Assembly (NCBI GenBank): GCA_015233335.1
Contig: JADFXX010000002.1
Location: 64,891 to 128,890 of the forward strand
Direction: 5' to 3'
Source: Candidatus Omnitrophota bacterium
GTDB taxonomy: Bacteria > Omnitrophota > Gorgyraeia > Zapsychrales > Fredricksoniimonadaceae
Length of the DNA: 64,000 bases
Positions 2,797 to 43,976 of this stretch are shown here, piece after piece. The first letter of the stretch is position 1, and the number at the start of each line of letters is the position of its first letter. The position numbers were made by a program, and so were the translations under genes. The notes beneath the pieces are model-generated. The model saw nothing but the letters and a program-made list of their open reading frames with translations. It made no database searches and was not told the origin of the DNA.

Positions 2797-4224
2797 TTAT
2801 AAATTCGGCTTTTTCAAATGCCATTGTGTGTTTTGCTCATAGGTGTACGAAATCCTTAAAAGCATTTCTTCGTCAAAAGCTTTGCCCATCAACTGCAAAC
2901 CAATCGGCAAACCGCTTTTAGAAAATCCGCAAGGAATAGAGATCGACGGAATACCTGCCAAATTGGCTGGAATCGTATAAATATCAGACAAATACATCGA
3001 CAAAGGATCGCTGATCTTCTCCCCGACTTTAAAGGCAACCGTCGGGCAGGTTGGGGTCAGGATCACATCGCACTTTTTGAATACTTCATCCAGATCATTT
3101 TTAATCAGCGTCCTCACCTTCTGAGCGCGCAAATAATAAGCATCATAATAACCGGACGATAACACATAGGTGCCAAGCATAATACGGCGCTTGGCCTCAT
3201 CCCCAAACCCTTTGGCACGGGTTTCTTCGTACATATCAACCAGAGCGTTTTTACGCAGACCGGCAGGCCGAGCTCGCAGGCCATAACGCACCCCGTCGAA
3301 ACGCGCTAAATTAGAACTGGCCTCAGCGGTCGCCACGATATAATAAGTCGCCACAGCATAAGGCGTATGCGGCAGGGACACTTCATGGACCACACCCCCA
3401 AGTTTTTTGAGTAGATCCACGGCATTTTCGAGCGACCGGCGAACTTCGGCATCCAGTCCGTCAGCAAACGCTTCTTTCGGAATGCCGATTTTTAAACCCT
3501 TCACATCATTGACCAGGGCTTTGGTATAATCCGGTACAGGCCGATTGACTGACGTTGAATCACGTTCATCATAGCCCGAAATGATATTCATCAATAAAGC
3601 GCAATCCCTCACATCACGGGTCAAAGGGCCTACTTGATCCAAACTCGATGCAAATGCGATCAGGCCATAACGCGAAACACGGCCATAGGTAGGTTTCAAT
3701 CCAACGATACCGCAAAAAGACGCCGGCTGACGGATAGAACCGCCGGTATCCGAGCCCAATGCCCATGTCGCTTCAAGAGCGGCCACTGCCGCCGCGCTGC
3801 CGCCGCTTGAGCCGCCGGGAACGCAAGCCAAATCCCACGGATTATAGGAAGGCCCATAACAAGAAGATTCACAGGATGAACCAAAGGCAAATTCATCCAT
3901 ATTAGCAATACCTAAAATAGTGCCGCCGCTTTTTTTGATCTTTTCTATAATCCCGGCATCATAGGGGGGATGGAAACCTTTTAAAATATGCGAAGCACAA
4001 GTAATTTCTTCTCCCTTGACACATAAAATATCTTTAACAGCAATAGGTATTTGGAATTCCCCCGAATAATCAGGCTGTTGGCTCACCAAGCGCACATAAG
4101 CTTTGACCTTCGGTTCAACGGCTTTGATACGATTCAATACATCCTCGTAAGCTTCTTTGGGAGAAGCTTTACCGGATTTATATAAATCCATTAAAGCATG
4201 AGCGGTCAATGAGTGTAGGTTCAT
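2797..4224 (-). CDS. gatA: Asp/Glu-tRNA amidotransferase subunit A
   Basis: 475 aa. Amidase signature [12 protein letters not shown]. Overlaps gatC by 4 nt. Confidence 0.95.
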
Positions 4225-4508
4225 TCGATGACTAAAGGCACTTTAAAACAGCCGTCTTTGGCCTCAACGGCAACGGACAGGGCTTGATTGTGGGTTAATG
4301 AAGCTTTAACCACATCCTGACGGAAAACATTCCCTACAGGCACAGCATGACTGGTGGGTTTGACATGCTCTACGTCAAGCTTTTGCAATTGCTCCACGTA
4401 ATGGACAATATCCCCCAAATTCCTGGTAAAGCCCTCGAGCTTATCTTCAGGCACATCCATCCGTGCTAAAGCAGCAACATATTTAACATCTTCCTTGGAA
4501 ATAGACAT
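4221..4508 (-). CDS. gatC: Asp/Glu-tRNA amidotransferase subunit C
   Basis: About 95 aa from the ATG at 4508; the track ORF begins at a TTG at 4544. [17 protein letters not shown]... is typical of GatC, and the gatCAB order fits. Confidence 0.85.
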
Positions 4509-4552
4509 AGGCAAAATACTATCATCAAAGACAATGAAAAACAAGGGTTAGA

Positions 4553-6805
4553 TTAACTACGAAAAAAGTCCCAATCCCAATAAAAAGGAGTGAAATATTT
4601 GGTCGATAAAATCAATAGATCCATCCTTATCACGGAAAGAAGATAGGTATAATCATCTGTCCATGGCCGAATTTTCTTATTTTGAAAACTATCAGGCCTC
4701 ATCTCTATCCAGGCAAGTTTTGAAATAAGCATACCCCTGACATCTTTGTCCCATGTTATAGCCCCCCACAAAGATCTGAGACATCCGTCTTTTTCTTCTT
4801 TATTCTGATTCATTAATGAATACGCCCCGATATAAGAAGCGTTTTTAGATAAAATAGGCGCTAAATCAATGAGTTGATTGGATATATGAAATAAAATAAA
4901 TCCATTTTTCTTAAGACATCTTCTATATTCAAGCATCGCGTCAGTCGTTAAAAGATGAACCGGGACATAATCACCGCTAAAAGCATCAACGATCAATAGA
5001 TCATAAGTCTGATCAGGCACGCCCTTTAGAGAATTTCTTGCGTCTCCGATGACAATATTCGTTTTTGCTTTTGAGTGATCGATGTACGTAAATAAATTTT
5101 TTGCAATCCAATAAACATCCTTATCTATTTCAAAAAAATCAATAACCTCCTGATCCTTACCGTAAGCAGCTATGGTCCCAACCCCTAATCCAATGACGCC
5201 GACATGATCAAAATTGAAATTGCCGCTTCCTAAAACCTTGCCCAGAGGAGTATTTTCATGAAAATACGCCAAGGGAACATTTTGTTTCTCTTTTGAAATA
5301 TACTGCATTCCATGTATCGTAATCCCACTGTCCAATTCAAAAAATTCTTTATTGGCATAAACCCTATAGATGCCGTAATAATTCCTTTGTATAAAGAAAT
5401 TTATGGCTTGGGTTTTCCAGCTGTTATCGACAAAAAAGGCCAAACAAAACACAGCAGCTAAGCATAACGAAATCGAACGTAAATTTGTTTTTAAGTTAGT
5501 AAAAATAAATTTCACCGCAAAAAATAAGAAAAGTATCCCAAAAAAGTTGTACCTTTTAAAAACAAGCGGCCAAAGAAAAATAAGCAGCAAGAGATAAACA
5601 ACTTGACGCATATGATAAAAGCTGATCTTGCCCCTTTCCCCCTGAAAAAGATACACCGCCGATACTATCCACAGCCCAAATAAGTATTCATAGGTAGAAG
5701 GGAACACAACAGGCGCAATCCATGTGACAAAAAAGCTCCCCGCAAAGCCGCCGAATGCAATTAAAAGATAAAAAACAGTCAGCCCTGAATTGTCTTTAGG
5801 CCTGCTCATGTAGAGCTGATACTGGCAATGCATACAAATGGCAAACAAACAAATAAGGTTGGCCGCAATCGTTAAAAGAGGCGGGAAAAAGCCCTTTATC
5901 GTAAAAAAATAAACCAGGACCCCGAAACCAAAAACCAGATAAAACTTATCCTTAATCCATGATGGACACAACGGTCTTTCTCTAAAGGTCAAAACAAAAG
6001 ATATTAAATAAATACACAACGGTATCATCCAAAGCAGCGGGCAAGGCGCGATTTGATAGGTAATAATATTGGTAACTGAAAGAAACGCCATGCAGCCGGC
6101 TGCGGATAAAAGCACCCACATGAGCTTTATGCCAAAAAAATCACTGTGCGCTATTTGATTTACAAATAGACCCGTGAAAGAAAAATAAAATTTTGGCAAC
6201 GCTTTATCGGAACAGGCAATGGATTTAAATGCCAGCAAATAAAACAAAATAAACACGATATAGCAAAACCGCCAAATCAGCAGCTGTTCTTGCAAACCAA
6301 AATGGGCCTCAAAAATAAAAGGATAGGTCAATAAACCTAAAAACGAACCCGCATTGGAAACGGCATAGAGTATATAAGGATTGTCGCGTTCTCGAAGCTC
6401 ACTTGAGGCAAGCCAGCTTTGAGAAATGACACTTATAGTGGAGAGTACAAAAAAAACCAAACCGACACTTGAGATCAACTGGATGAATATATCGGCCACT
6501 AGGGGAATATTATTATGAGCAAAAATAGGAGGCAAATTCCTCCCGGGAAATACAATCAAAGGCAGTAAAATCAAGATCAAATGAAAATAACGGTAGCGAA
6601 AAATTCCGAATATTTGAGCGACAAGATGAGAATACAAATAACTCAAAAGCAGGACGCACTGAAAAAATACGACACAGCCACCCCACACCAAATAGCTGCC
6701 GCCAAATTTAGGAAGAAAGATCTTTGCTGTTATTAGTTCTATCTGGAAAAGTAAAAAAGCTGATAGAAAATTAACAATATAGAGAGTATGAATTTTCTTC
6801 AACAT
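4553..6805 (-). CDS. Polytopic membrane protein fused to a spermidine-synthase-like (class I methyltransferase fold) domain
   Basis: 750 aa. About 480 aa of repeated hydrophobic helices, then VIGLGVGTIAAYG...EIDKDV...LLIVDAFSGDYVPVHLLT, which resembles the aminopropyltransferase/SpeE fold. GLGVG replaces the canonical GGGDG. Confidence 0.65.
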   Translation of the reverse strand: MLKKIHTLYIVNFLSAFLLFQIELITAKIFLPKFGGSYLVWGGCVVFFQCVLLLSYLYSHLVAQIFGIFRYRYFHLILILLPLIVFPGRNLPPIFAHNNIPLVADIFIQLISSVGLVFFVLSTISVISQSWLASSELRERDNPYILYAVSNAGSFLGLLTYPFIFEAHFGLQEQLLIWRFCYIVFILFYLLAFKSIACSDKALPKFYFSFTGLFVNQIAHSDFFGIKLMWVLLSAAGCMAFLSVTNIITYQIAPCPLLWMIPLCIYLISFVLTFRERPLCPSWIKDKFYLVFGFGVLVYFFTIKGFFPPLLTIAANLICLFAICMHCQYQLYMSRPKDNSGLTVFYLLIAFGGFAGSFFVTWIAPVVFPSTYEYLFGLWIVSAVYLFQGERGKISFYHMRQVVYLLLLIFLWPLVFKRYNFFGILFLFFAVKFIFTNLKTNLRSISLCLAAVFCLAFFVDNSWKTQAINFFIQRNYYGIYRVYANKEFFELDSGITIHGMQYISKEKQNVPLAYFHENTPLGKVLGSGNFNFDHVGVIGLGVGTIAAYGKDQEVIDFFEIDKDVYWIAKNLFTYIDHSKAKTNIVIGDARNSLKGVPDQTYDLLIVDAFSGDYVPVHLLTTDAMLEYRRCLKKNGFILFHISNQLIDLAPILSKNASYIGAYSLMNQNKEEKDGCLRSLWGAITWDKDVRGMLISKLAWIEMRPDSFQNKKIRPWTDDYTYLLSVIRMDLLILSTKYFTPFYWDWDFFRS

Positions 6806-7182
6806 GTCAGTTTTTCTCTTAAATCATCCGGAATAGGGGTTGGTCTAAATTCGCCATTTAGACAAACCAAGGAAACCTCCGCCTCAATGATAAGCCTGCC
6901 GTCCTTCTTATCATGGACGGTCTGCTCAAAAATCAATTGTGAAGCTCCGATCTTCTTTAATTTAGCATCACAAATGAGTATATCCCCATAGCGTGCCGGA
7001 GAACGATAGCTCACATTGCATTGACGAACTACAAACACAAATCCGCGCTCATGAAAAAGCTCAACACTCAAACCCCTGTTTTCCAAAAATTCCGTACGCG
7101 CCTCTTCAAGATAACACAAATACTGGCCGTAATAAACAATCCCTCCGGAATCCGTATCATAGTAGAAAACCCGTTTTTCCAT
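6799..7182 (-). CDS. 4HBT/YbgC-family acyl-CoA thioesterase
   Basis: Hotdog-fold N-terminal motif VFYYDTDSGGIVYYGQY. ATG at 7182 is preceded by GGAGG at 5-nt spacing; the track ORF starts at a TTG at 7212. Confidence 0.8.
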   Translation of the reverse strand: MEKRVFYYDTDSGGIVYYGQYLCYLEEARTEFLENRGLSVELFHERGFVFVVRQCNVSYRSPARYGDILICDAKLKKIGASQLIFEQTVHDKKDGRLIIEAEVSLVCLNGEFRPTPIPDDLREKLTC

Positions 7183-7252: not shown

Positions 7253-8038
7253 TTATAACATAATCCCATTGCAAAGGTTGATGTAATTTGACAAAGTTAA
7301 GTTTTCAGGACGGGCATTTAACGGGATGCCCAAAATCTTAAGAACATCTTCCAACTGTTCACGGTCTACTAATCCTTTAAGAGCATTTACAATTGTTTTA
7401 CGCCGCTGTTGGAAGGCTGTTTGAATGAATTTGAATAAGAATTCATCGTCACGCGCGGGTGTTTGGGGCCAAGGCCTCATCATCAGACGCATAAAGCAGG
7501 AATTGACTTGCGGAACCGGCCTAAAACAGGTGTTCTTGATCTTAAAAAGCATTTTAATATCCGAGCTATACTGTGCAAAACAGCTTAGGGACCCATAGTC
7601 TTTACCGCCCGCACGAGCCGCCAGCCTCTCCCCGAATTCCAGCTGTACCGTCAGAAAAGCCGTGGCGATCTTGGTTTTGTGTTCGATCAATTTTTCAATA
7701 ATAGGGGTCGAAATATAATACGGAATATTACCGATCACTTTGATGCCGTCAGCTAAAGGACTCATGTCCCATTTAAGAAAGTCCGCGTGAATAATTTCCA
7801 CACAAGAAGGCAAGTTTATGCGTAAAGGTTGTATTAGGTCACGGTCAGTCTCCACACAAATAAGCTTTTTAACCCTTGGAGTCATGAGCTTCGTCAAAAC
7901 ACCCTGACCAGGACCAATTTCTACCACCACATCTTCACGATCAAGCTCACAAGCTTCAATGATTTTCTGCTGAATCCGGGTGTCGATCAGAAAGTTTTGG
8001 CCTAATTCTTTTTTAGGATGATGGGATCTTTGAGACAC
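7253..8038 (-). CDS. rsmA: 16S rRNA (adenine1518/1519-N6)-dimethyltransferase
   Basis: 261 aa. Has the KKELGQNFL motif and VVEIGPGQG SAM site. Conserved surA-pdxA-rsmA synteny. Confidence 0.93.
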   Translation of the reverse strand: MSQRSHHPKKELGQNFLIDTRIQQKIIEACELDREDVVVEIGPGQGVLTKLMTPRVKKLICVETDRDLIQPLRINLPSCVEIIHADFLKWDMSPLADGIKVIGNIPYYISTPIIEKLIEHKTKIATAFLTVQLEFGERLAARAGGKDYGSLSCFAQYSSDIKMLFKIKNTCFRPVPQVNSCFMRLMMRPWPQTPARDDEFLFKFIQTAFQQRRKTIVNALKGLVDREQLEDVLKILGIPLNARPENLTLSNYINLCNGIML

Positions 8039-8041
8039 TAT

Positions 8042-8941
8042 TTAACTAAGCTCACAGGCGAGTTTGATGGCGGCCGTCATAGATGATGGGTCAGCCTTAT
8101 TTTTTCCGGCAATATTAAAGGCCGTGCCATGGGCCGGGGATGTCCGAACAAAAGGTAAACCAGCGGTCAAATTTACCAAATCTTTCATGTACACAGCCTT
8201 AAGAGGTGCCAGTCCTTGATCGTGGTACATGGCAATAATACCGTCATAAGGACATGTCTGGAAGGCAAAAAAGGTGTCTGCCGGCAACGGTCCAATGGTG
8301 TTAATACCACAAGCTCTAGCCTTACGGATGGCAGGCAAAATATACTTAATATCTTCACTGCCTAAAAGCCCTCCTTCTCCCGCATGCGGATTTAACCCCA
8401 AAACAGCAATTTTAGGACTTCTGACCCTAAACCTCTTCTTTAATGTTTGGGCCATCAAAATAATAGAATCAAACACCACAGGAACTGAAATTAAATCCGG
8501 TACATTTCTTAAAGGCACATGACGGGTCAAAATTGTTAAACGGACATAGGGGGCAATAAACATCATATCAAAACGTCGGACACCGAAAGCCTGGGCCAAG
8601 TACTCCGTATGCCCCACGAAACCTTTATGGTATAGGCTGACAGCCTCTTTGGAGACAGGCGCTGTCACCAAAGCGTCCACTGTTTTCTCTTTGATCAAAG
8701 CAACAGCTCGGTCCAAAAATTTAAGTGAACCCTCCCCTGCGGTTTCATAAGGCACCTCTAGTACTTGGACTAAAGAAGGGACACGGCCTAAAATCTTTTT
8801 GTTCCCAATAACTATAAAACGACCTTGGCCGAGCAAAGATTTCTTCGACAAGGCACGACGAATCACCTCAGGTCCAATTCCCCTGGGGTCTCCCATGGTG
8901 ATGGCAATAGAAGGAAGGGCTCTCTTATTTGATTTCAACAT
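8042..8941 (-). CDS. pdxA: 4-hydroxythreonine-4-phosphate dehydrogenase
   Basis: Motifs ITMGDPRGIGPEV, GHTEYLA and GLNPHAGEGG. The ATG at 8941 gives a canonical N-terminus; the longer track ORF reaches 9001 and overlaps surA. Confidence 0.9.
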   Translation of the reverse strand: MLKSNKRALPSIAITMGDPRGIGPEVIRRALSKKSLLGQGRFIVIGNKKILGRVPSLVQVLEVPYETAGEGSLKFLDRAVALIKEKTVDALVTAPVSKEAVSLYHKGFVGHTEYLAQAFGVRRFDMMFIAPYVRLTILTRHVPLRNVPDLISVPVVFDSIILMAQTLKKRFRVRSPKIAVLGLNPHAGEGGLLGSEDIKYILPAIRKARACGINTIGPLPADTFFAFQTCPYDGIIAMYHDQGLAPLKAVYMKDLVNLTAGLPFVRTSPAHGTAFNIAGKNKADPSSMTAAIKLACELS

Positions 8942-9884
8942 AGGCCTTCTTACGCAAGAGATCGACCCACTCTTTGAACTTGGACTGAAACTGAGCATCA
9001 AACAGTTTGTTATAAATCTGGTCTTTGACTTCTTTCAAGGTCTGCAGCTTGCCCGGTAAAATCCCAATTGCTTTAAAAACATATATACCATTCTCGACTT
9101 CCACAGGCAAAGAAACTTCTTCGAGCTTCAAATTAAATACGACATTCTCAATGGCATCCACCATCTGCCCTTGTTCAATCTCTCCGACTGATGCGGCATC
9201 GGAATATTCCTTAAAAATTTTAGAAAAATCCTCTCCCGCGATCATGCGCGCTCGTGCCTCATCGGCACGGTTATGGGCCTCTTGCTTATTGTGCTTTTCA
9301 AAAGAAACAAAAACCGACTGCAAATTCATTCGCGTCTTACGTTCAAACTCATTCATGTGCTTATTGTAATACTCAGTAACATTCTGGGGATTAACAAAAA
9401 TCTTATCGCGCACTTGAAAATCCACAATATATTTGACCTTCAACTGGTCGATCAATTTCTTTCTTAAGTCGCTAACAGACAAACCTTCTACGCTGATAGC
9501 CTGTAAAAATTCATCTTCACTGGCGTAACGGTCCTTGATCTCTTTGATGCGCCGATCAACCACTTCTTCGCGTATGATCATCTCCTTTTCGTTAGCCGCA
9601 GCCAGGATCAATTTATCTTCAATGAGCTTATCCAGCCCCTTTTGCTCATAATCCCCCATGATCTCCTTGATCTCTTCAGGAGATTTATTCTCAATCTTCA
9701 ACTGACTATAAATACTGGCTACATATTGGCGCAGATCTTTCAAGGTGATCACATCATCATTGACAATGGCAATAATGCCATCACTGGGAAGATCTCGGGC
9801 GCCCGCAGGAACCGCAAAAGCCAAAAAACAAAAGAGCGTAACGAACAATAACCCCTCAATCCTATTTCGTTTAAGTCGTATCAT
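8925..9884 (-). CDS. surA: SurA-like periplasmic chaperone / parvulin-type peptidyl-prolyl isomerase
   Basis: 319 aa. Signal peptide LFVTLFCFLAFAVPAGA, a SurA_N-like helical region, and one degenerate parvulin domain. Sits upstream of pdxA-rsmA. Confidence 0.75.
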   Translation of the reverse strand: MIRLKRNRIEGLLFVTLFCFLAFAVPAGARDLPSDGIIAIVNDDVITLKDLRQYVASIYSQLKIENKSPEEIKEIMGDYEQKGLDKLIEDKLILAAANEKEMIIREEVVDRRIKEIKDRYASEDEFLQAISVEGLSVSDLRKKLIDQLKVKYIVDFQVRDKIFVNPQNVTEYYNKHMNEFERKTRMNLQSVFVSFEKHNKQEAHNRADEARARMIAGEDFSKIFKEYSDAASVGEIEQGQMVDAIENVVFNLKLEEVSLPVEVENGIYVFKAIGILPGKLQTLKEVKDQIYNKLFDAQFQSKFKEWVDLLRKKAYVEIK

Positions 9885-11793
9885 GTTTTATCTTTACCTC
9901 TTTCTTTAAATGTTCAATAGATTCTTTAAGAAGTCGACAATACAGATCAAACCCTATACTGGTAATAAATCCATGCTGTTGGGCTCCCAATAAATTCCCG
10001 GCACCACGGATCTGCAGGTCCTCAAAAGCGATATGGAAACCCGCCCCCAGATCGCTGTGTTTCTCAATGGCCTTGAGCCTCTGACGAGATATTTCCGACT
10101 GAAGCTCTCTTTTGGGCACAATGAAATATGCAAACGCCTGGATGTCCAAACGGCCGACTCTGCCACGCAACTGGTGCAAATCTGCCAGTCCGAATCTATC
10201 AGCACGATTGACGATCAGCGTATTAGCACAGGGCACGTCAATCCCGGACTCGATAATCGTCGTACAAACCAGAATATCTACTTCATGCTTGAGGAATTTT
10301 AACATAATCTCCTCCAAAGGGCGAGCGCTCATTTGTCCATGAGCTACGGCGAGACGAGCATGAGGAACCAGTTTTCTGACAGATTCAGCGACTTTATCAA
10401 TATTTTCGACACGGTTATGTAAAAAAAATACTTGCCCATCACGCGCCAGCTCATGCTCAAGGGCTTCTTGAATGAGCTTTTCATCAAAATCAATAATCTG
10501 AGTTTTCACAGCCAGACGATTAGTCGGCGGAGTTGAGATCACAGACATGTCCCGAGCTCCAGAAAGAGCCATATACAGTGTGCGCGGAATAGGAGTGGCT
10601 GTCAGGGTCATCACATCCGCAAGCAGGCGAAAATGCTTTAATTTTTCCTTAGATTTCACCCCAAAGCGTTGTTCCTCATCAATGATCACCAAGCCCAGAT
10701 CCTTAAAAGCAACATCACCCGATAAGAGCCGATGCGTTCCGATAATAATATCAACCTTGCCCTCACGGGTCTCCTGAACGATCCGTTTTTGCTCAAGCTT
10801 AGTTCGAAAACGTGAAAGCATCCCCACTTTAACAGGAAATCCGTCCAGTCGCTTGCTGAAGTTATAATAATGCTGTTCAGCTAATATCGTCGTAGGAACC
10901 AAGATTGCAACCTGTTTGTTGTCCATCACCGCTTTAAAGGCCGCGCGCATGGCCACCTCAGTTTTACCATAGCCAACATCACCGCAAATCAACCGGTCCA
11001 TGGGACGCTGCGACTCCATATCACCTTTCGTTTCAAGCGTTGCCCTTAATTGGTCAGGAGTTTCCTTATAAGGAAATTTAGCCTCGAATTCTTTTTGCCA
11101 TTCACTATCAGGTGAAAAGGAAAATCCGGCCAATTGCGCCCGTAAAGCTTGTGTGCGAAGAAGCTCAGCGGCCAACAACCTTAATTTCTTTTCAACAGCC
11201 CGACGGGTAGCCAGCCACTCCTTACTGCCCAATTTATGCAATCGTGCCGGGCGCTTAGAAAAAGAAACATATTTCTGTACCAAATGTATATCGTGTTTGG
11301 GAACAAATAATTTGTCCCCACCCTTATATTCAATAACCAAATGCTCAACGCTTTGGCCGAGAGTTTTGCTCTCAAGCGAATTAGGTCTTTTATCAAATTC
11401 TCTGATACCTACAAAACGCCCTATGCCGTGATGATTATGGACGACATAATCACCCTGTTGGATATCCACAAAACTATTGATAGGAACCTCAGAAGAAAAA
11501 ACAACTTGGGAGGAAGTTTTGTAAGGAACTACCAAGACGATGCGGTGTTCATCAATATTCTTTGCACTAACAGGATCAAAACCATGAATTGAAAGAATGG
11601 TATCATCATTGATATCCAAACGTAACGGAATCTCAAAATGGGCCGGATAAATATCAAGTACTCCTCCGCGCAGGGCAAACTCGCCCTCTTTATAAACTTT
11701 TGTCGCCCGGGAATACCCAAAGGCGACAAGTGTTTGGAGGATCTCCTCGATGTTGACCTTTTGACCGATCAAAAATTCAAGAGACTTAAACAT
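9871..11793 (-). CDS. mfd: Transcription-repair coupling factor, compact form (D2-RID-translocase only)
   Basis: 640 aa. GEFALRGGVLDIYP (UvrB-homology D2). GDYVVHNHHGIGRFVGI (RNAP-interacting domain, RID). Helicase motifs GDVGYGKTEVA, DEEQRFGV, TATPIPRT and QLRGRVGR. TRG motif IRGAGNLLGAQQHG. An in-frame TAA lies immediately 5' of the ATG. Confidence 0.88.
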   Translation of the reverse strand: MFKSLEFLIGQKVNIEEILQTLVAFGYSRATKVYKEGEFALRGGVLDIYPAHFEIPLRLDINDDTILSIHGFDPVSAKNIDEHRIVLVVPYKTSSQVVFSSEVPINSFVDIQQGDYVVHNHHGIGRFVGIREFDKRPNSLESKTLGQSVEHLVIEYKGGDKLFVPKHDIHLVQKYVSFSKRPARLHKLGSKEWLATRRAVEKKLRLLAAELLRTQALRAQLAGFSFSPDSEWQKEFEAKFPYKETPDQLRATLETKGDMESQRPMDRLICGDVGYGKTEVAMRAAFKAVMDNKQVAILVPTTILAEQHYYNFSKRLDGFPVKVGMLSRFRTKLEQKRIVQETREGKVDIIIGTHRLLSGDVAFKDLGLVIIDEEQRFGVKSKEKLKHFRLLADVMTLTATPIPRTLYMALSGARDMSVISTPPTNRLAVKTQIIDFDEKLIQEALEHELARDGQVFFLHNRVENIDKVAESVRKLVPHARLAVAHGQMSARPLEEIMLKFLKHEVDILVCTTIIESGIDVPCANTLIVNRADRFGLADLHQLRGRVGRLDIQAFAYFIVPKRELQSEISRQRLKAIEKHSDLGAGFHIAFEDLQIRGAGNLLGAQQHGFITSIGFDLYCRLLKESIEHLKKEVKIKHDTT

Positions 11794-12303
11794 TTACTTT
11801 TTCACATGTAGATTTATTTCATTTTCTACCCAATGAAAGGCGTCTTCTCCAGAGGCAATGACAGATTGATTGCGATCTACAATAACAAAATAAGGAAAAT
11901 ATTTGACATGCAGAGCTTTGAGGAACTGATCATGAAAGTCTAGATAGACCGGGGGGCTGATCCGGGCTGCCATTTCATTAATAGCTTGCCTTTCACCATT
12001 ACCAACAATGACTTTCAATCCCGGACGATCATCAGCTTTCCAGGAACTCCTATAATCAGTAATGACCGGCAACAATTCTCGACAATGTGGGCACCAAGGG
12101 GCAAGATAAATATAAACACAATATCCCCTGTCAATAGCACATGGCCCCGGGGCGCCCCATAAAAAGGTTCTACTGTCTTGTGAATACGTTACCAGAAAAT
12201 CAAATGCTGTTTTTGATAATTTAGGGTGGTAGAAAGTCTTCCACCCCACAATTGTTATGATCCCAATGACGATAAGAAATTTTCTAATCCTGAGATCTAC
12301 CAT
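11794..12303 (-). CDS. Membrane-anchored thioredoxin-fold thiol-disulfide oxidoreductase (TlpA/ResA-like)
   Basis: 169 aa. N-terminal TM helix and a WCPHC active-site motif. Confidence 0.75.
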   Translation of the reverse strand: MVDLRIRKFLIVIGIITIVGWKTFYHPKLSKTAFDFLVTYSQDSRTFLWGAPGPCAIDRGYCVYIYLAPWCPHCRELLPVITDYRSSWKADDRPGLKVIVGNGERQAINEMAARISPPVYLDFHDQFLKALHVKYFPYFVIVDRNQSVIASGEDAFHWVENEINLHVKK

Positions 12304-41138: not shown

Positions 41139-41167
41139 ATTATACCAAGGTTATCTGACTTTGTTTA
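41139..41167 (-). promoter_or_regulatory. Candidate extended -10 promoter for the TPR-exbBD operon
   Basis: The minus strand reads cTAAACAaagtcagataaccTTGgTATAATatttc (TGnTATAAT, 17-nt spacer). The -35 falls in the last codons of uvrA. AAAGGAAG SD precedes the ATG at 41101. Confidence 0.45.
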
Positions 41168-43976
41168 AGAAATGTTTCAGGTATTGACCGGTGTACGAGG
41201 TGGGATGACGCACCAGGTCCTGAGGCGATCCTGCAAAAACAACCTCTCCTCCTTTGTCACCTCCGTCGGGCCCAAGATCAATGATATAATCCGCAGTCTT
41301 GACCACATCCAAATTGTGCTCGATAACGAGCACCGTATTACCTCTGTCGACCAAACGCTGCAGGACTCCCAATAGTTTATCCACATCGGCAAAATGCAAG
41401 CCGGTTGTAGGTTCATCCAAAATATAAAAAGTACGCCCCGTGGCCGCTTTGCACAATTCACTGGCCAATTTGACCCTCTGCGCTTCACCGCCGGACAAGG
41501 TCGTGGCCGCCTGTCCCAGACGAATATATCCTAAACCCACGTCATTTAAAGTTCGCAATATATTCTGGACTCTTGGGATATTTTCAAATATTTCAAGGGC
41601 TTGAGACACTGACAGGTTGAGCACATCCGCAATGTTCTTGCCTTTAAATTGCACCTCCAAGGTCTGGTCCGTAAAACGCCGCCCGTGGCATATGGCGCAC
41701 TCAACATAGACATCCGGCAAAAAATGCATTTCAATTTTCTTGATCCCATCCCCTCCACAGGATTCGCAACGCCCGCCTTTAACGTTAAAACTGAAACGCC
41801 CCGGCTTATATCCCCGTATTTTGGATTCAGGCAACAGTGCGAATAGATCGCGAATGGGGGCAAAAACACCCGTATAGGTGGCCGGATTAGAGCGCGGCGT
41901 ACGGCCAATAGGTGATTGGTCTACCACAATGACTTTATCAATATGCTGTATGCCTTCGATTTTCTTATACCTGCCCGGTTTCTCCCTGCTGCCATAAATT
42001 TTATGAACCAAGGCTTTATATAAAATGTCCGTAACAAGGGTCGATTTACCCGAACCCGAAACACCCGTCACACAAATAAATGCCCCTAAGGGAAGGCTGA
42101 TGTTAATATCTTTTAAATTATGCTCTGCGGCACCGATGATTTTCAGAAAATCAGTTGCAATAATGTCTCTGTGTTTATCCGGACGTTTGATTTGATACTC
42201 TCCCGTGAGATACCGTCCGGTCAAAGAATCCGGACATTGGGTCAACCCCTTGACTCCTCCGGCATAAATCACACGTCCGCCCTGCTCGCCGGCGCCGGGA
42301 CCTAGATCGATCACATAATCTGCTCTTCGAATGGTATCTTCATCATGCTCAACAACGATCAGGGTATTGCCTAGATCTCGCAGCGCATGAAGGGTAGATA
42401 AAAGACGGTCATTGTCCTTTTGATGAAGTCCGATGCTGGGTTCGTCTAATACATAAATAACACCCACCAACCCGGAACCGACCTGAGTCGCCAGGCGTAT
42501 GCGTTCTGCCTCACCGCCGGAAAGGCTGCTGCTGCGTCTGTCTAACTGCAAGTACTCAAGGCCCACATTAATACAAAAATCCAACCGGCGGTTAATCTCT
42601 TTGATAATCTCTTCACTGATGATTTTCTTATCTTGAGGAAGCTTTAGCTGACTGAAAAATTGTTTGGCCTCTTTGATAGAAAACGCTGTCAGCTGGGTAA
42701 TATCCCGATCGGCGACTTTGACTGCTAGTGATTCCTTTTTAAGACGCCGTCCCTGACATTCAGGACAAGGGGACTCATACATAAAGGAAGCGATCTCTTC
42801 TTTAAGCCAATCGCTGTCCGTTTCCCTAAATAATCGCTGCAGATATTTGACCACCCCTTCAAAAGTCCTTCCCCAAATTTCAACCTCCGAGCCATAAAAA
42901 ACCATATGTTTGAATTTCTTATCGAGGTCTTTAAACGGCTTATGCGGGTCTATCCTATACATGCGGGCGATTTCCCTCAATACGGCTCGGTAATACATCA
43001 TGTACCCACGCTGGCCGCGCTTCCAGGGAGCGATGGCGGATATCCACGGCTTAGCATCGTCCGGCACCAAAGCCTGCGGATCAATTTCCATCTTGGTCCC
43101 CAGCCCATTGCAATCGGAACAGGCGCCATATGGCAAATTAAAAGAAAAAATACGCGGCTCAATCTCACTTAAAGAAATGCCGCAGTCCCCACAGGCATAT
43201 TTTTCACTGAAGATCTGCTGAGGTTTTACATTATTAAAATCAAGAATCATCCCCCCTTCGCCTGTCTTTAATGCTGTTTCAACAGAGTCGGACAAACGCT
43301 TACGCAGCCCCTCGCGGATAGTCAGACGGTCAACCACCACTTCAATGTGGTGGATTTTATATTTATCGAGTTTAAAAGAATCCCCCGTTTCATAGATTTT
43401 CCCGTCAATACGCATACGGGCGAAACCGGACTGAGCGACCTGCTTTCCAATATTACGATACTCGCCTTTACGTCCGCGTACCAAAGGACTTAAAATATTA
43501 ATTTGAGTCCCCAGGGGTAGCTCTAAAACAATATCTACGATCTGCTGAGCACTTTGCATTTCAATTTTCTTGCCACAGGAGGGACAATGGGGAGTTCCGA
43601 CACGTGCAAACAAAAGACGCAAATAATCATAAATTTCTGTCTGGGTTGCAACGGTAGAGCGCGGATTGCGGCTGACTGTTTTTTGTTCGATTGAAATCGT
43701 CGGGGAAAGCCCTTCGATATGGTCCACCGCCGGCTTTTGCAGCTGATCTAAAAACTGGCGGGCATAGGCCGAAAGACTTTCCACGTAACGACGCTGGCCT
43801 TCGGCATAAATGGTATCAAAAGCCAAAGACGACTTGCCGCATCCGCTGACACCTGTGATCACCACAAATTGATTGCGGGGAATGATCAAATCAATGTTTT
43901 TAAGATTATGTTCACGGGCCCCGCGGATCATGATAGAGCTCATCGGGGACACCCCTTGATCTTCATCTATTTTCAT
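41151..43976 (-). CDS. uvrA: Excinuclease ABC subunit A
   Basis: 941 aa. IRGAREHNLKNI, two ABC modules (GVSGCGKSS, GVSGSGKST, LSGGEAQR) and zinc-finger cysteines. An alternative ATG start lies at 43943. Confidence 0.96.
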   Translation of the reverse strand: MKIDEDQGVSPMSSIMIRGAREHNLKNIDLIIPRNQFVVITGVSGCGKSSLAFDTIYAEGQRRYVESLSAYARQFLDQLQKPAVDHIEGLSPTISIEQKTVSRNPRSTVATQTEIYDYLRLLFARVGTPHCPSCGKKIEMQSAQQIVDIVLELPLGTQINILSPLVRGRKGEYRNIGKQVAQSGFARMRIDGKIYETGDSFKLDKYKIHHIEVVVDRLTIREGLRKRLSDSVETALKTGEGGMILDFNNVKPQQIFSEKYACGDCGISLSEIEPRIFSFNLPYGACSDCNGLGTKMEIDPQALVPDDAKPWISAIAPWKRGQRGYMMYYRAVLREIARMYRIDPHKPFKDLDKKFKHMVFYGSEVEIWGRTFEGVVKYLQRLFRETDSDWLKEEIASFMYESPCPECQGRRLKKESLAVKVADRDITQLTAFSIKEAKQFFSQLKLPQDKKIISEEIIKEINRRLDFCINVGLEYLQLDRRSSSLSGGEAERIRLATQVGSGLVGVIYVLDEPSIGLHQKDNDRLLSTLHALRDLGNTLIVVEHDEDTIRRADYVIDLGPGAGEQGGRVIYAGGVKGLTQCPDSLTGRYLTGEYQIKRPDKHRDIIATDFLKIIGAAEHNLKDINISLPLGAFICVTGVSGSGKSTLVTDILYKALVHKIYGSREKPGRYKKIEGIQHIDKVIVVDQSPIGRTPRSNPATYTGVFAPIRDLFALLPESKIRGYKPGRFSFNVKGGRCESCGGDGIKKIEMHFLPDVYVECAICHGRRFTDQTLEVQFKGKNIADVLNLSVSQALEIFENIPRVQNILRTLNDVGLGYIRLGQAATTLSGGEAQRVKLASELCKAATGRTFYILDEPTTGLHFADVDKLLGVLQRLVDRGNTVLVIEHNLDVVKTADYIIDLGPDGGDKGGEVVFAGSPQDLVRHPTSYTGQYLKHFLNKVR

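Follow-up and report, generated by a model that had tools for sequence, protein, structure and literature searches.

A short Mfd from Omnitrophota that keeps the UvrA-binding domain D2 and has no counterpart of domains D1a, D1b, D3 and D7

Background

A stretch of 64,000 nucleotides from a Candidatus Omnitrophota bacterium, referred to in its full length as the window (assembly GCA_015233335.1, contig JADFXX010000002.1, positions 64,891-128,890 of the forward strand; GTDB lineage Bacteria; Omnitrophota; Gorgyraeia; Zapsychrales; Fredricksoniimonadaceae), encodes a natural short form of the transcription-repair coupling factor Mfd. The protein of 640 amino acids (aa) is composed of the UvrA-binding domain D2, a linker, the RNA polymerase-interacting domain (RID), a relay helix and the two translocase lobes D5 and D6. 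Its anatomy and its distribution among Omnitrophota genomes are solid observations. We favour, with some reserve, the reading that the gene is the orthologous mfd of this Omnitrophota lineage, left with D2-linker-RID-relay helix-D5-D6 after the loss of its other domains. By analogy with characterized enzymes, the product is most likely to function as an Mfd without clamp autoinhibition, which would still bind RNA polymerase (RNAP) and probably UvrA. A broader proposal is put forward more tentatively: a deep clade of Omnitrophota, including the archaeon predator Candidatus Velamenicoccus archaeovorus, known from enrichment culture, may perform RNAP rescue and transcription-coupled repair by means of a clampless Mfd without the D1-D3 module.

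Current models of transcription-coupled repair centre on D7, which masks D2 and restrains the motor, and on the movements of D1-D3 that time the recruitment of UvrA. The universality of Mfd autoinhibition is under debate, as in a 2026 paper on Thermus thermophilus (PMC13453472). No description of a natural D7-less or otherwise short Mfd was found in the literature, and two genome papers on Omnitrophota are silent on Mfd. Short proteins of this kind are routinely annotated as an ordinary "transcription-repair coupling factor", a database naming which hides their architecture.

Results

Domain architecture of the short Mfd

The complete coding sequence occupies positions 9871..11793 of the window on the minus strand, from an ATG start through 640 codons to a TAA stop, and is a single, uninterrupted open reading frame (ORF) in the ORF listing of the window. 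Pfam places four domains in the product, namely UvrB_inter at residues 7-91, CarD_TRCF_RID at 112-176, DEAD at 265-406 and Helicase_C at 444-549, and gives no match to the TRCF domain (PF03461) that represents D7. Comparison with the PDB by phmmer resolves the protein into two blocks: residues 9-90 align to residues 132-213 of E. coli Mfd, which form D2, and residues 97-631 match residues 463-988 with no large gap (597 bits), a span that opens at the end of the D3-D4 linker and closes with D6; the identity over the core is about 50%. Since these blocks skip them, D1a (about residues 1-126 in E. coli), D1b with D3 (214-462) and D7 (after about residue 997) are without counterpart; of the UvrB homology module D1a-D2-D1b, D2 alone is present. 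A preliminary description, made from the sequence alone, had proposed that D2 is joined to the RID and translocase across some 20 residues, with D1a, D1b, D3 and D7 missing, and both Pfam and the PDB alignment agree with it.

The individual segments, all on the minus strand, follow one another in the order of canonical Mfd. D2 starts at the initiation codon and extends over aa 1-91 (11521..11793; Pfam PF17757). When the N-terminal 99 aa are searched alone, the best PDB match is chain A of 4DFC, an Mfd D2 chain (E = 2.2e-11), and the segment is closer to Mfd D2 than to UvrB or UB2H (47 bits vs at most 28). A linker of aa 92-110 (11464..11520) stands in place of D1b and D3 and, towards its C-terminus, corresponds to E. 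coli residues 463-472, where the D3-D4 linker ends. The RID, or D4, comprises aa 111-176 (11266..11463; PF02559, 62.9 bits) and aligns to E. coli residues 473-547; it includes a variable loop insertion at aa 134-146 (11356-11394), which has about nine residues more than E. coli Mfd and differs in both length and sequence within the short clade. The connector between the RID and D5 (11119..11265) contains the relay helix, modelled by AlphaFold2 (AF2) at residues 192-219, where W193 corresponds by alignment to E. coli W550. Lobe 1 of the translocase, D5 (aa 226-425; 10519..11118), carries the Walker A motif GDVGYGKT and motif II DEEQ, and lobe 2, D6 (aa 426-640; 9874..10518), carries motif VI, the TRG motif and the hook helices. 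The alignment ends near E. coli residues 988-997, and the protein itself stops at the position of the D6-D7 linker. The preliminary description had the protein end soon after the TRG motif; it does end before D7, yet both hook helices (AF2 residues 604-613 and 615-639) are kept.

Family assignment and structure model

With the mfd equivalog model TIGR00580 the protein scores 864 bits, above the cut-off of 800; with the E. coli-type model PRK10689 it stays below the cut-off (663 vs 1329). RecG models fall far under their cut-offs (TIGR00643, 378 vs 659.4; best RecG model, 404 vs 718), and their matches are limited to the motor, covering residues 140-610 at most, the N-terminus being made up of D2 and the RID. 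Identity as a RecG-like paralogue is argued against by these low RecG scores, the presence of the RID and D2, and the mfd-surA position of the gene.

The AF2 model of the short Mfd has a mean predicted local distance difference test score (pLDDT) of 82.6 and a predicted template modelling score (pTM) of 0.73. It was obtained from an alignment diversified with sequences at 54-59% identity; a shallow alignment of sequences at 68-100% identity gave a pLDDT of 67.5 and a pTM of 0.37. Values of 73-91 are reached in D2 (residues 1-90), and the RID outside its loop, D5, D6, the TRG motif and the hook helices are mostly above 70. The linker, at residues 93-108, is below 50 in both models, and the RID loop at residues 137-146 is below 50 in the model from the diversified alignment. 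The best Foldseek matches are the Mfd structures of M. smegmatis, M. tuberculosis and E. coli, including the DNA-bound 6XEO (TMq 0.60-0.72), and RecG structures rank far behind them.

Distribution of the short form

A protein identical to that of the window is present at NCBI (P0001), named transcription-repair coupling factor, on a 197,836-bp contig of a Candidatus Omnitrophica metagenome-assembled genome (MAG). The best 120 clusters listed for the window protein (68-100% identity) are all 598-665 aa in length with the same Pfam set, and a further 120 clusters, listed with the V. archaeovorus protein as seed (59-97% identity), are all 588-667 aa and devoid of TRCF. A survey of Mfd length in relatives, as the preliminary description had recommended, thus finds the short form conserved at 588-667 aa among the at least 240 clusters listed. 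A scan of GTDB species representatives retrieved complete ORFs of 619-643 aa (49-86% identity) from 13 genomes; Ca. Kappaea frigidicola is among them, as is Candidatus Velamenicoccus archaeovorus LiM, whose closed chromosome, NZ_CP019384.1, codes for a short Mfd of 631 aa. Among 54 sequences, the N-termini coincide within 0-15 residues and the C-termini within 0-6. The gene has two unrelated settings: in most genomes it lies between secDF and surA, and in GCA_053991395.1 between an rlu-like gene and clpB. When representatives at 50% identity are considered, the best 150 include three short ones (P0121, P0124 and the fragment P0244); the remaining 147 measure 975-1283 aa and are about 50-56% identical over the core.

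Some database entries call for comment. Short Mfds occur in MAGs labelled Planctomycetales, Planctomycetia or Deltaproteobacteria (L012, L013, L016, L021 and P0442), labels which are probably wrong or outdated; the first four proteins are 57-64% identical to that of the window, and L013 and L016 also have the secDF-mfd-surA-pdxA synteny. The 1.29-Mb contig of locus L001 (ERZ25039480 contig_16581; L001 positions 3690-5207 and 5564-7064) contains many fragmented genes, as is typical of uncorrected long-read assemblies: His_biosynth lies in five pieces and trpE, secDF and gatB in at least two each, and the short mfd is intact at 629 aa. An apparent ORF of 630 aa at locus L080 was discarded as a wrong-frame artefact in a GC-rich genome.

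Conserved residues and selection

Residue conservation was scored in 80 sequences of the short clade, and 143 Mfds served as the full-length comparison set. In the motor, K277 (E. coli K634) and D372/E373 (E. coli D729/E730) are kept in 100% of the sequences, and H485 (E. coli H842), R545 and R548 of motif VI (E. coli R902 and R905), R572 (E. coli R929) and R596 (E. coli R953) in 99-100%. The relay tryptophan W193 is present in 80/80. In D2, R58 (E. coli R181) is kept in 100% across the short clade and R42 (E. coli R165) in 85-99%, depending on the set.

Mean pairwise identity is 0.50 in D2, 0.57 in the RID and 0.51 in the relay region. Between close pairs, nonsynonymous differences per site (pN) in D2 amount to 0.10-0.23, with the synonymous sites (pS) saturated. 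The ratio of nonsynonymous to synonymous substitution rates (dN/dS) of D2 is 0.07-0.10 in the three comparisons with an estimable dS; in most comparisons dS is saturated, and the ratios there are bounds only. These low values of pN and dN/dS show that D2 is under purifying selection and is not decaying.

Search for the missing domains

A set of 142 full-length relatives was used to build hidden Markov models (HMMs) for D1a, D1b with D3, and D7; these regions have median lengths of 137, 237 and 148 aa, which together account for the size difference. As positive controls, the HMMs detected their domains in 145-147 of the 147 full-length Mfds (D7 in 147/147). None of the three was found in the six-frame translation of the window (best E at least 0.7), nor did any appear in the 249 kb that surround 18 loci with a short mfd (best E at least 0.26). 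The neighbours differ between the two contexts of the short gene, so that there is no conserved neighbouring partner.

A D7-profile search was also made in a set of 5.8 billion proteins. The best 120 of its 639 matches are all short proteins with a TRCF domain, and most of their contigs are very short; none of these 120 is labelled Omnitrophota, and none has a contig equal in length to a short-Mfd contig (two contigs of 83,746 and 83,751 bp belong to different assemblies), the latter being a weak test. Stand-alone TRCF proteins on the two long contigs examined were found to be pieces of frameshifted full-length mfd genes from other organisms. At loci L005 (3542-6648) and L006 (2932-6453), full-length mfd is broken by frameshifts into 3-7 ORFs, through assembly errors or as pseudogenes. 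Since such pieces lie behind apparent stand-alone TRCF proteins, short D7 matches in metagenome catalogues should not be taken for split genes unless their context is checked.

Phylogeny, synteny and a possible intermediate

In neighbour-joining trees built on about 525 core columns, the short forms make up one clan among the full-length Mfds (bootstrap 63/100 and 67/100). The distance within the short group reaches a maximum of 0.80, which exceeds the mean distance of 0.61 to the nearest full-length sequences, so that the reduced architecture is old and stable. The named neighbours include the full-length, Omnitrophica-labelled P0123 (1112 aa) and sequences from NPL-UPA2, Auribacterota and Verrucomicrobia.

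The gene order secDF-mfd-surA-pdxA-rsmA extends from the window as far as L017, L027 and L028, which diverge most within the group; related bacteria of the PVC group have full-length mfd-surA in this slot. Full-length mfd genes are likewise followed by surA or surA-pdxA in Omnitrophica-labelled loci (L007-9) and in Verrucomicrobia (L079 and L083), the order mfd-surA-pdxA being that of a Chthoniobacterales MAG whose mfd is full-length. Orthology by position, along with the TIGR00580 score above the cut-off, argues that the short protein is the Mfd of its lineage and not a RecG-like paralogue; as judged from sequence, an Mfd orthologue reduced by domain loss is the most likely identity.

A possible intermediate is encoded at L077 (QNCF01000006.1, 5723-8668; Omnitrophota isolate B48_G9). 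This Mfd of 973 aa has D1a-D2-D1b and a short D3, its D7 is reduced to about 60 residues (positions 2-56 of 95 in the TRCF profile), and R193, Q200 and S202 are still the canonical residues in its D2. Such a protein hints at a stepwise loss of domains. The genomes of Omnitrophota are small, at 0.86-3.2 Mb, and the cells are mostly ultra-small and possibly host-dependent (PMC10066038), a biology with which domain loss is in keeping.

Genes around the short mfd

Upstream of mfd lies an ORF for a thioredoxin-like protein of 169 aa (11794..12303, minus strand), with weak Pfam matches to Thioredoxin_8 and Thioredoxin and a hydrophobic N-terminus. Its TAA stop touches the ATG of mfd (...AAAAAG TAA ATG TTT AAG...), as the preliminary description had stated and as can be read directly in the sequence. 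The ORF sits between secDF and mfd in the window genome only; no thioredoxin-like match was obtained between these genes in L001, L002 and L010, where secDF overlaps or abuts mfd. It is a lineage-specific and recent insertion into a conserved string of genes.

Downstream, a gene for a SurA-like periplasmic chaperone of 319 aa (8925..9884, minus strand; Pfam SurA_N and Rotamase, the latter a PPIase domain) starts inside the last codons of mfd. The 14-nt overlap between the two genes and the hydrophobic N-terminus are both consistent with the earlier claim of an overlapping surA with a signal peptide. The trio surA-pdxA-rsmA(ksgA), which we take to be the equivalent of the E. coli surA-pdxA-ksgA operon, is found 3' of mfd in the window (7253-9884, minus strand), in L001, L002, L010-L017, L027 and L028, and in part in L083.

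A full-length uvrA, the presumed partner of D2, had also been claimed for the window and lies on the minus strand, about 30 kb from mfd (41151..43976; NCBIfam PRK00349, 1446 bits). Its product carries UvrA_inter (PF17760) at residues 141-246 (122.7 bits), the domain that binds UvrB and Mfd D2, and UvrA_DNA-bind at residues 299-396.

All credible genes of the window lie on the minus strand; of the 60 ORFs that reach 120 aa, four are read from the plus strand, and each of these overlaps an ORF on the minus strand. The guanine-cytosine (GC) skew is negative in 32/32 two-kb bins, and loci L001 and L002 are likewise one-directional. Such extreme co-orientation of genes would minimise head-on conflicts between transcription and replication, which are one context of Mfd action. 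A further ORF of 750 aa (4553-6805, minus strand) gives only a weak match to NF037959, a fused MFS/spermidine-synthase model (50 bits, residues 552-645), so that no family is assigned to its large N-terminal portion.

Discussion

Proposed mechanism

According to the mechanism proposed here for the short Mfd, the RID would dock on the beta protrusion of stalled RNAP, and D5 and D6 would move along the duplex DNA upstream of it and drive it off in the manner of canonical Mfd. D2 would be carried on a flexible N-terminal tether of about 20 residues and would leave its surface unmasked at all times for the UvrA_inter domain to bind. Since the D2-D7 clamp and the D1-D3 module are absent, clamp-type autoinhibition and the D1-D3 "unmasking" steps could not operate, and in the cryo-EM pathway it is the movements of D1-D3 and D7 that time the recruitment of UvrA (PMC7864632). 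The constitutive exposure of the UvrA-binding surface, which the preliminary description had suggested, would follow from this arrangement, qualified by the changes in the D2 surface that are considered below.

An enzyme without the autoinhibitory machinery would be expected to act like the engineered hyperactive derivatives of E. coli Mfd, in which D7 or the UvrB homology module is deleted, and to be constitutively derepressed. Either deletion relieves autoinhibition (PMC3488230), and MfdDeltaD7 exhibits more than 5-fold higher ATPase activity and translocates without RNAP, while stalled complexes are still displaced (Smith et al. 2007, PMC1874598). Any control that remains would reside in the conserved interface between the relay helix and the hook, a known regulatory node (PMC3488230), and in the need for RNAP binding. 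The Mfd of T. thermophilus is naturally derepressed, and its 2026 study argues that autoinhibition is not universal (PMC13453472); by this analogy, the short clade would be a more radical example.

Several observations weigh against the proposal that an orthologous, reduced Mfd still couples RNAP to UvrA. The bootstrap support for a single origin is moderate (63-67%), and the absence of a separate partner or of a second mfd holds within the window and the flanks of the short loci only. In the RID, the position of E. coli L499, presumably an RNAP-binding residue, holds I/V/F in the short forms vs L/I/M in full-length Mfds and adjoins the variable loop. The most pronounced changes concern D2, in which the equivalent of E. 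coli F185 is D/E/N in about 90-99% of the short forms. The residues R193, Q200, R201 and S202, which are conserved at 97, 100, 78 and 89% in the 143 full-length Mfds, are all replaced in the short clade, the Q200 position being G/A/S in 100% of its sequences. With an acidic equivalent of F185 and these four replacements, UvrA binding by the D2 of the short Mfd is plausible but not assured, and the affinity could be altered or lost. In E. coli, the triple mutant D2AAA (R165, R181 and F185) disrupts the D2-D7 interface and derepresses Mfd (PMC3488230). The replaced positions appear to be specific to Mfd and not shared with UvrB, so that they are more likely to represent intramolecular contacts, with D7 and/or D1b, that were freed after the loss of their partners.

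Alternative explanations

The D2 replacements are also the main support for another explanation, which we regard as unlikely but worth serious attention, namely that the short protein is a minimal Mfd without repair coupling. It would then serve as a translocase for RNAP release or anti-backtracking, for example at transcription-replication conflicts or roadblocks, and D2 would have been kept as a cap that stabilises the fold, as a contact to DNA or RNAP, or for a different partner. Replacements at five D2 positions that hardly vary among full-length Mfds run through the whole clade, one of them at F185 of the D2AAA triad (PMC3488230), R42 is lost in 12/80 sequences, and roles of Mfd that are independent of excision repair are well documented (PMC13453472). 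Against this stands the retention of R58 in all, and of R42 in most, of the short sequences, as the E. coli equivalents R181 and R165 are critical for UvrA binding (PMC7385628). Purifying selection on D2 is as strong as that on the RID, within the PDB the D2 segment is closest to the Mfd D2 chain of 4DFC, and the UvrA of the window retains UvrA_inter. The apparently Mfd-specific nature of the replaced positions also makes freed intramolecular contacts the likelier reading.

Coupling might alternatively be retained with its regulation supplied in trans, by a separate D7-like or D1/D3-like protein, or by an unrelated one, that clamps D2 or the motor. In E. coli, autoinhibition is seen as functionally important, since it prevents the premature recruitment of UvrA (eLife 2021, PMC7864632). 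We consider such a partner improbable, because neither the window nor the 249 kb around the 18 short loci gave any signal of D1a, D1b/D3 or D7, and because the best 120 of the 639 D7 matches bear no Omnitrophota label, those inspected on long contigs being frameshifted mfd. Still less credence is given to the idea that the short Mfd is a paralogue and shares its genomes with a canonical Mfd of full length. Some proteins labelled Omnitrophota are indeed full-length Mfds, namely P0123 (1112 aa) and L077 (973 aa), but no full-length Mfd was seen on any contig with a short one. The short gene stands where relatives have full-length mfd, in the ancestral mfd-surA(-pdxA) slot, and passes the equivalog cut-off of TIGR00580; moreover, the short forms are one clan among the full-length sequences and not an old duplicate lineage that mirrors them. 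That the short gene is an artefact of assembly or annotation, or a pseudogene fragment, is refuted. The preliminary description had judged truncation by sequencing error to be unlikely, and the 588-667 aa architecture recurs in all of the at least 240 clusters, in 13 GTDB species, one of them with a closed genome, and in two gene contexts. Hundreds of independent assemblies give the same start and stop to within a few residues, the upstream stop codon directly adjoins the start codon of mfd, and every domain is under purifying selection.

Implications

If a clampless Mfd does couple transcription to repair in these organisms, a bare, tethered D2 would be sufficient for the hand-over to UvrA, and the multi-step loading and unmasking of E. 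coli Mfd would be a lineage-specific regulatory addition outside the core mechanism. The short Mfd may in this way provide a natural minimal system for defining what the displacement of RNAP and the recruitment of UvrA truly require and a natural test of the need for self-inhibition, and it raises the question of how cells tolerate an unregulated Mfd. At 640 aa it is also a compact construct for structural work, and for the short form there is a defined source whose genome is closed.

Comparison with known systems

The canonical Mfd of E. coli (2EYQ) and the short Mfd have D2, the RID, the relay helix, D5/D6, the TRG motif and the hook helices in common, in colinear arrangement. The canonical protein has in addition D1a, D1b, D3 and D7, about 520 residues without equivalent in the short Mfd, and its D2 residues F185, R193, Q200, R201 and S202 are replaced in the latter. 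RecG shares a homologous motor and the TRG motif and is of comparable size (1GM5, 274 bits; RecG models, 378-404 bits), yet its wedge domain is absent from the short Mfd, which has the RID and D2 instead. Domain 2 of UvrB and the UB2H domain of PBP1b (PF14814), to which the D2 of the short Mfd gives weak matches, demonstrate that the D2 fold is possible outside a D1a/D1b frame; unlike these, the D2 of the short Mfd is fused to an Mfd motor.

Among Mfds without effective clamp autoinhibition, that of T. thermophilus is likewise natural, and exhibits DNA-stimulated ATPase activity and robust RNAP-independent translocation (PMC13453472). It keeps D1a-D2-D1b, D3 and D7, in a clamp that is open and dynamic, whereas the parts of the clamp are physically absent from the short Mfd. 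The engineered E. coli derivatives, MfdDeltaD7 and the deletions of the UvrB homology module, each lack one module; the short Mfd is without both D7 and the N-terminal clamp and keeps D2. ATPase and translocation are derepressed in these derivatives and the displacement of RNAP is kept, a behaviour that is only predicted, by analogy, for the short Mfd. In contrast to the engineered proteins, the short Mfd is a natural form, selected across a whole clade.

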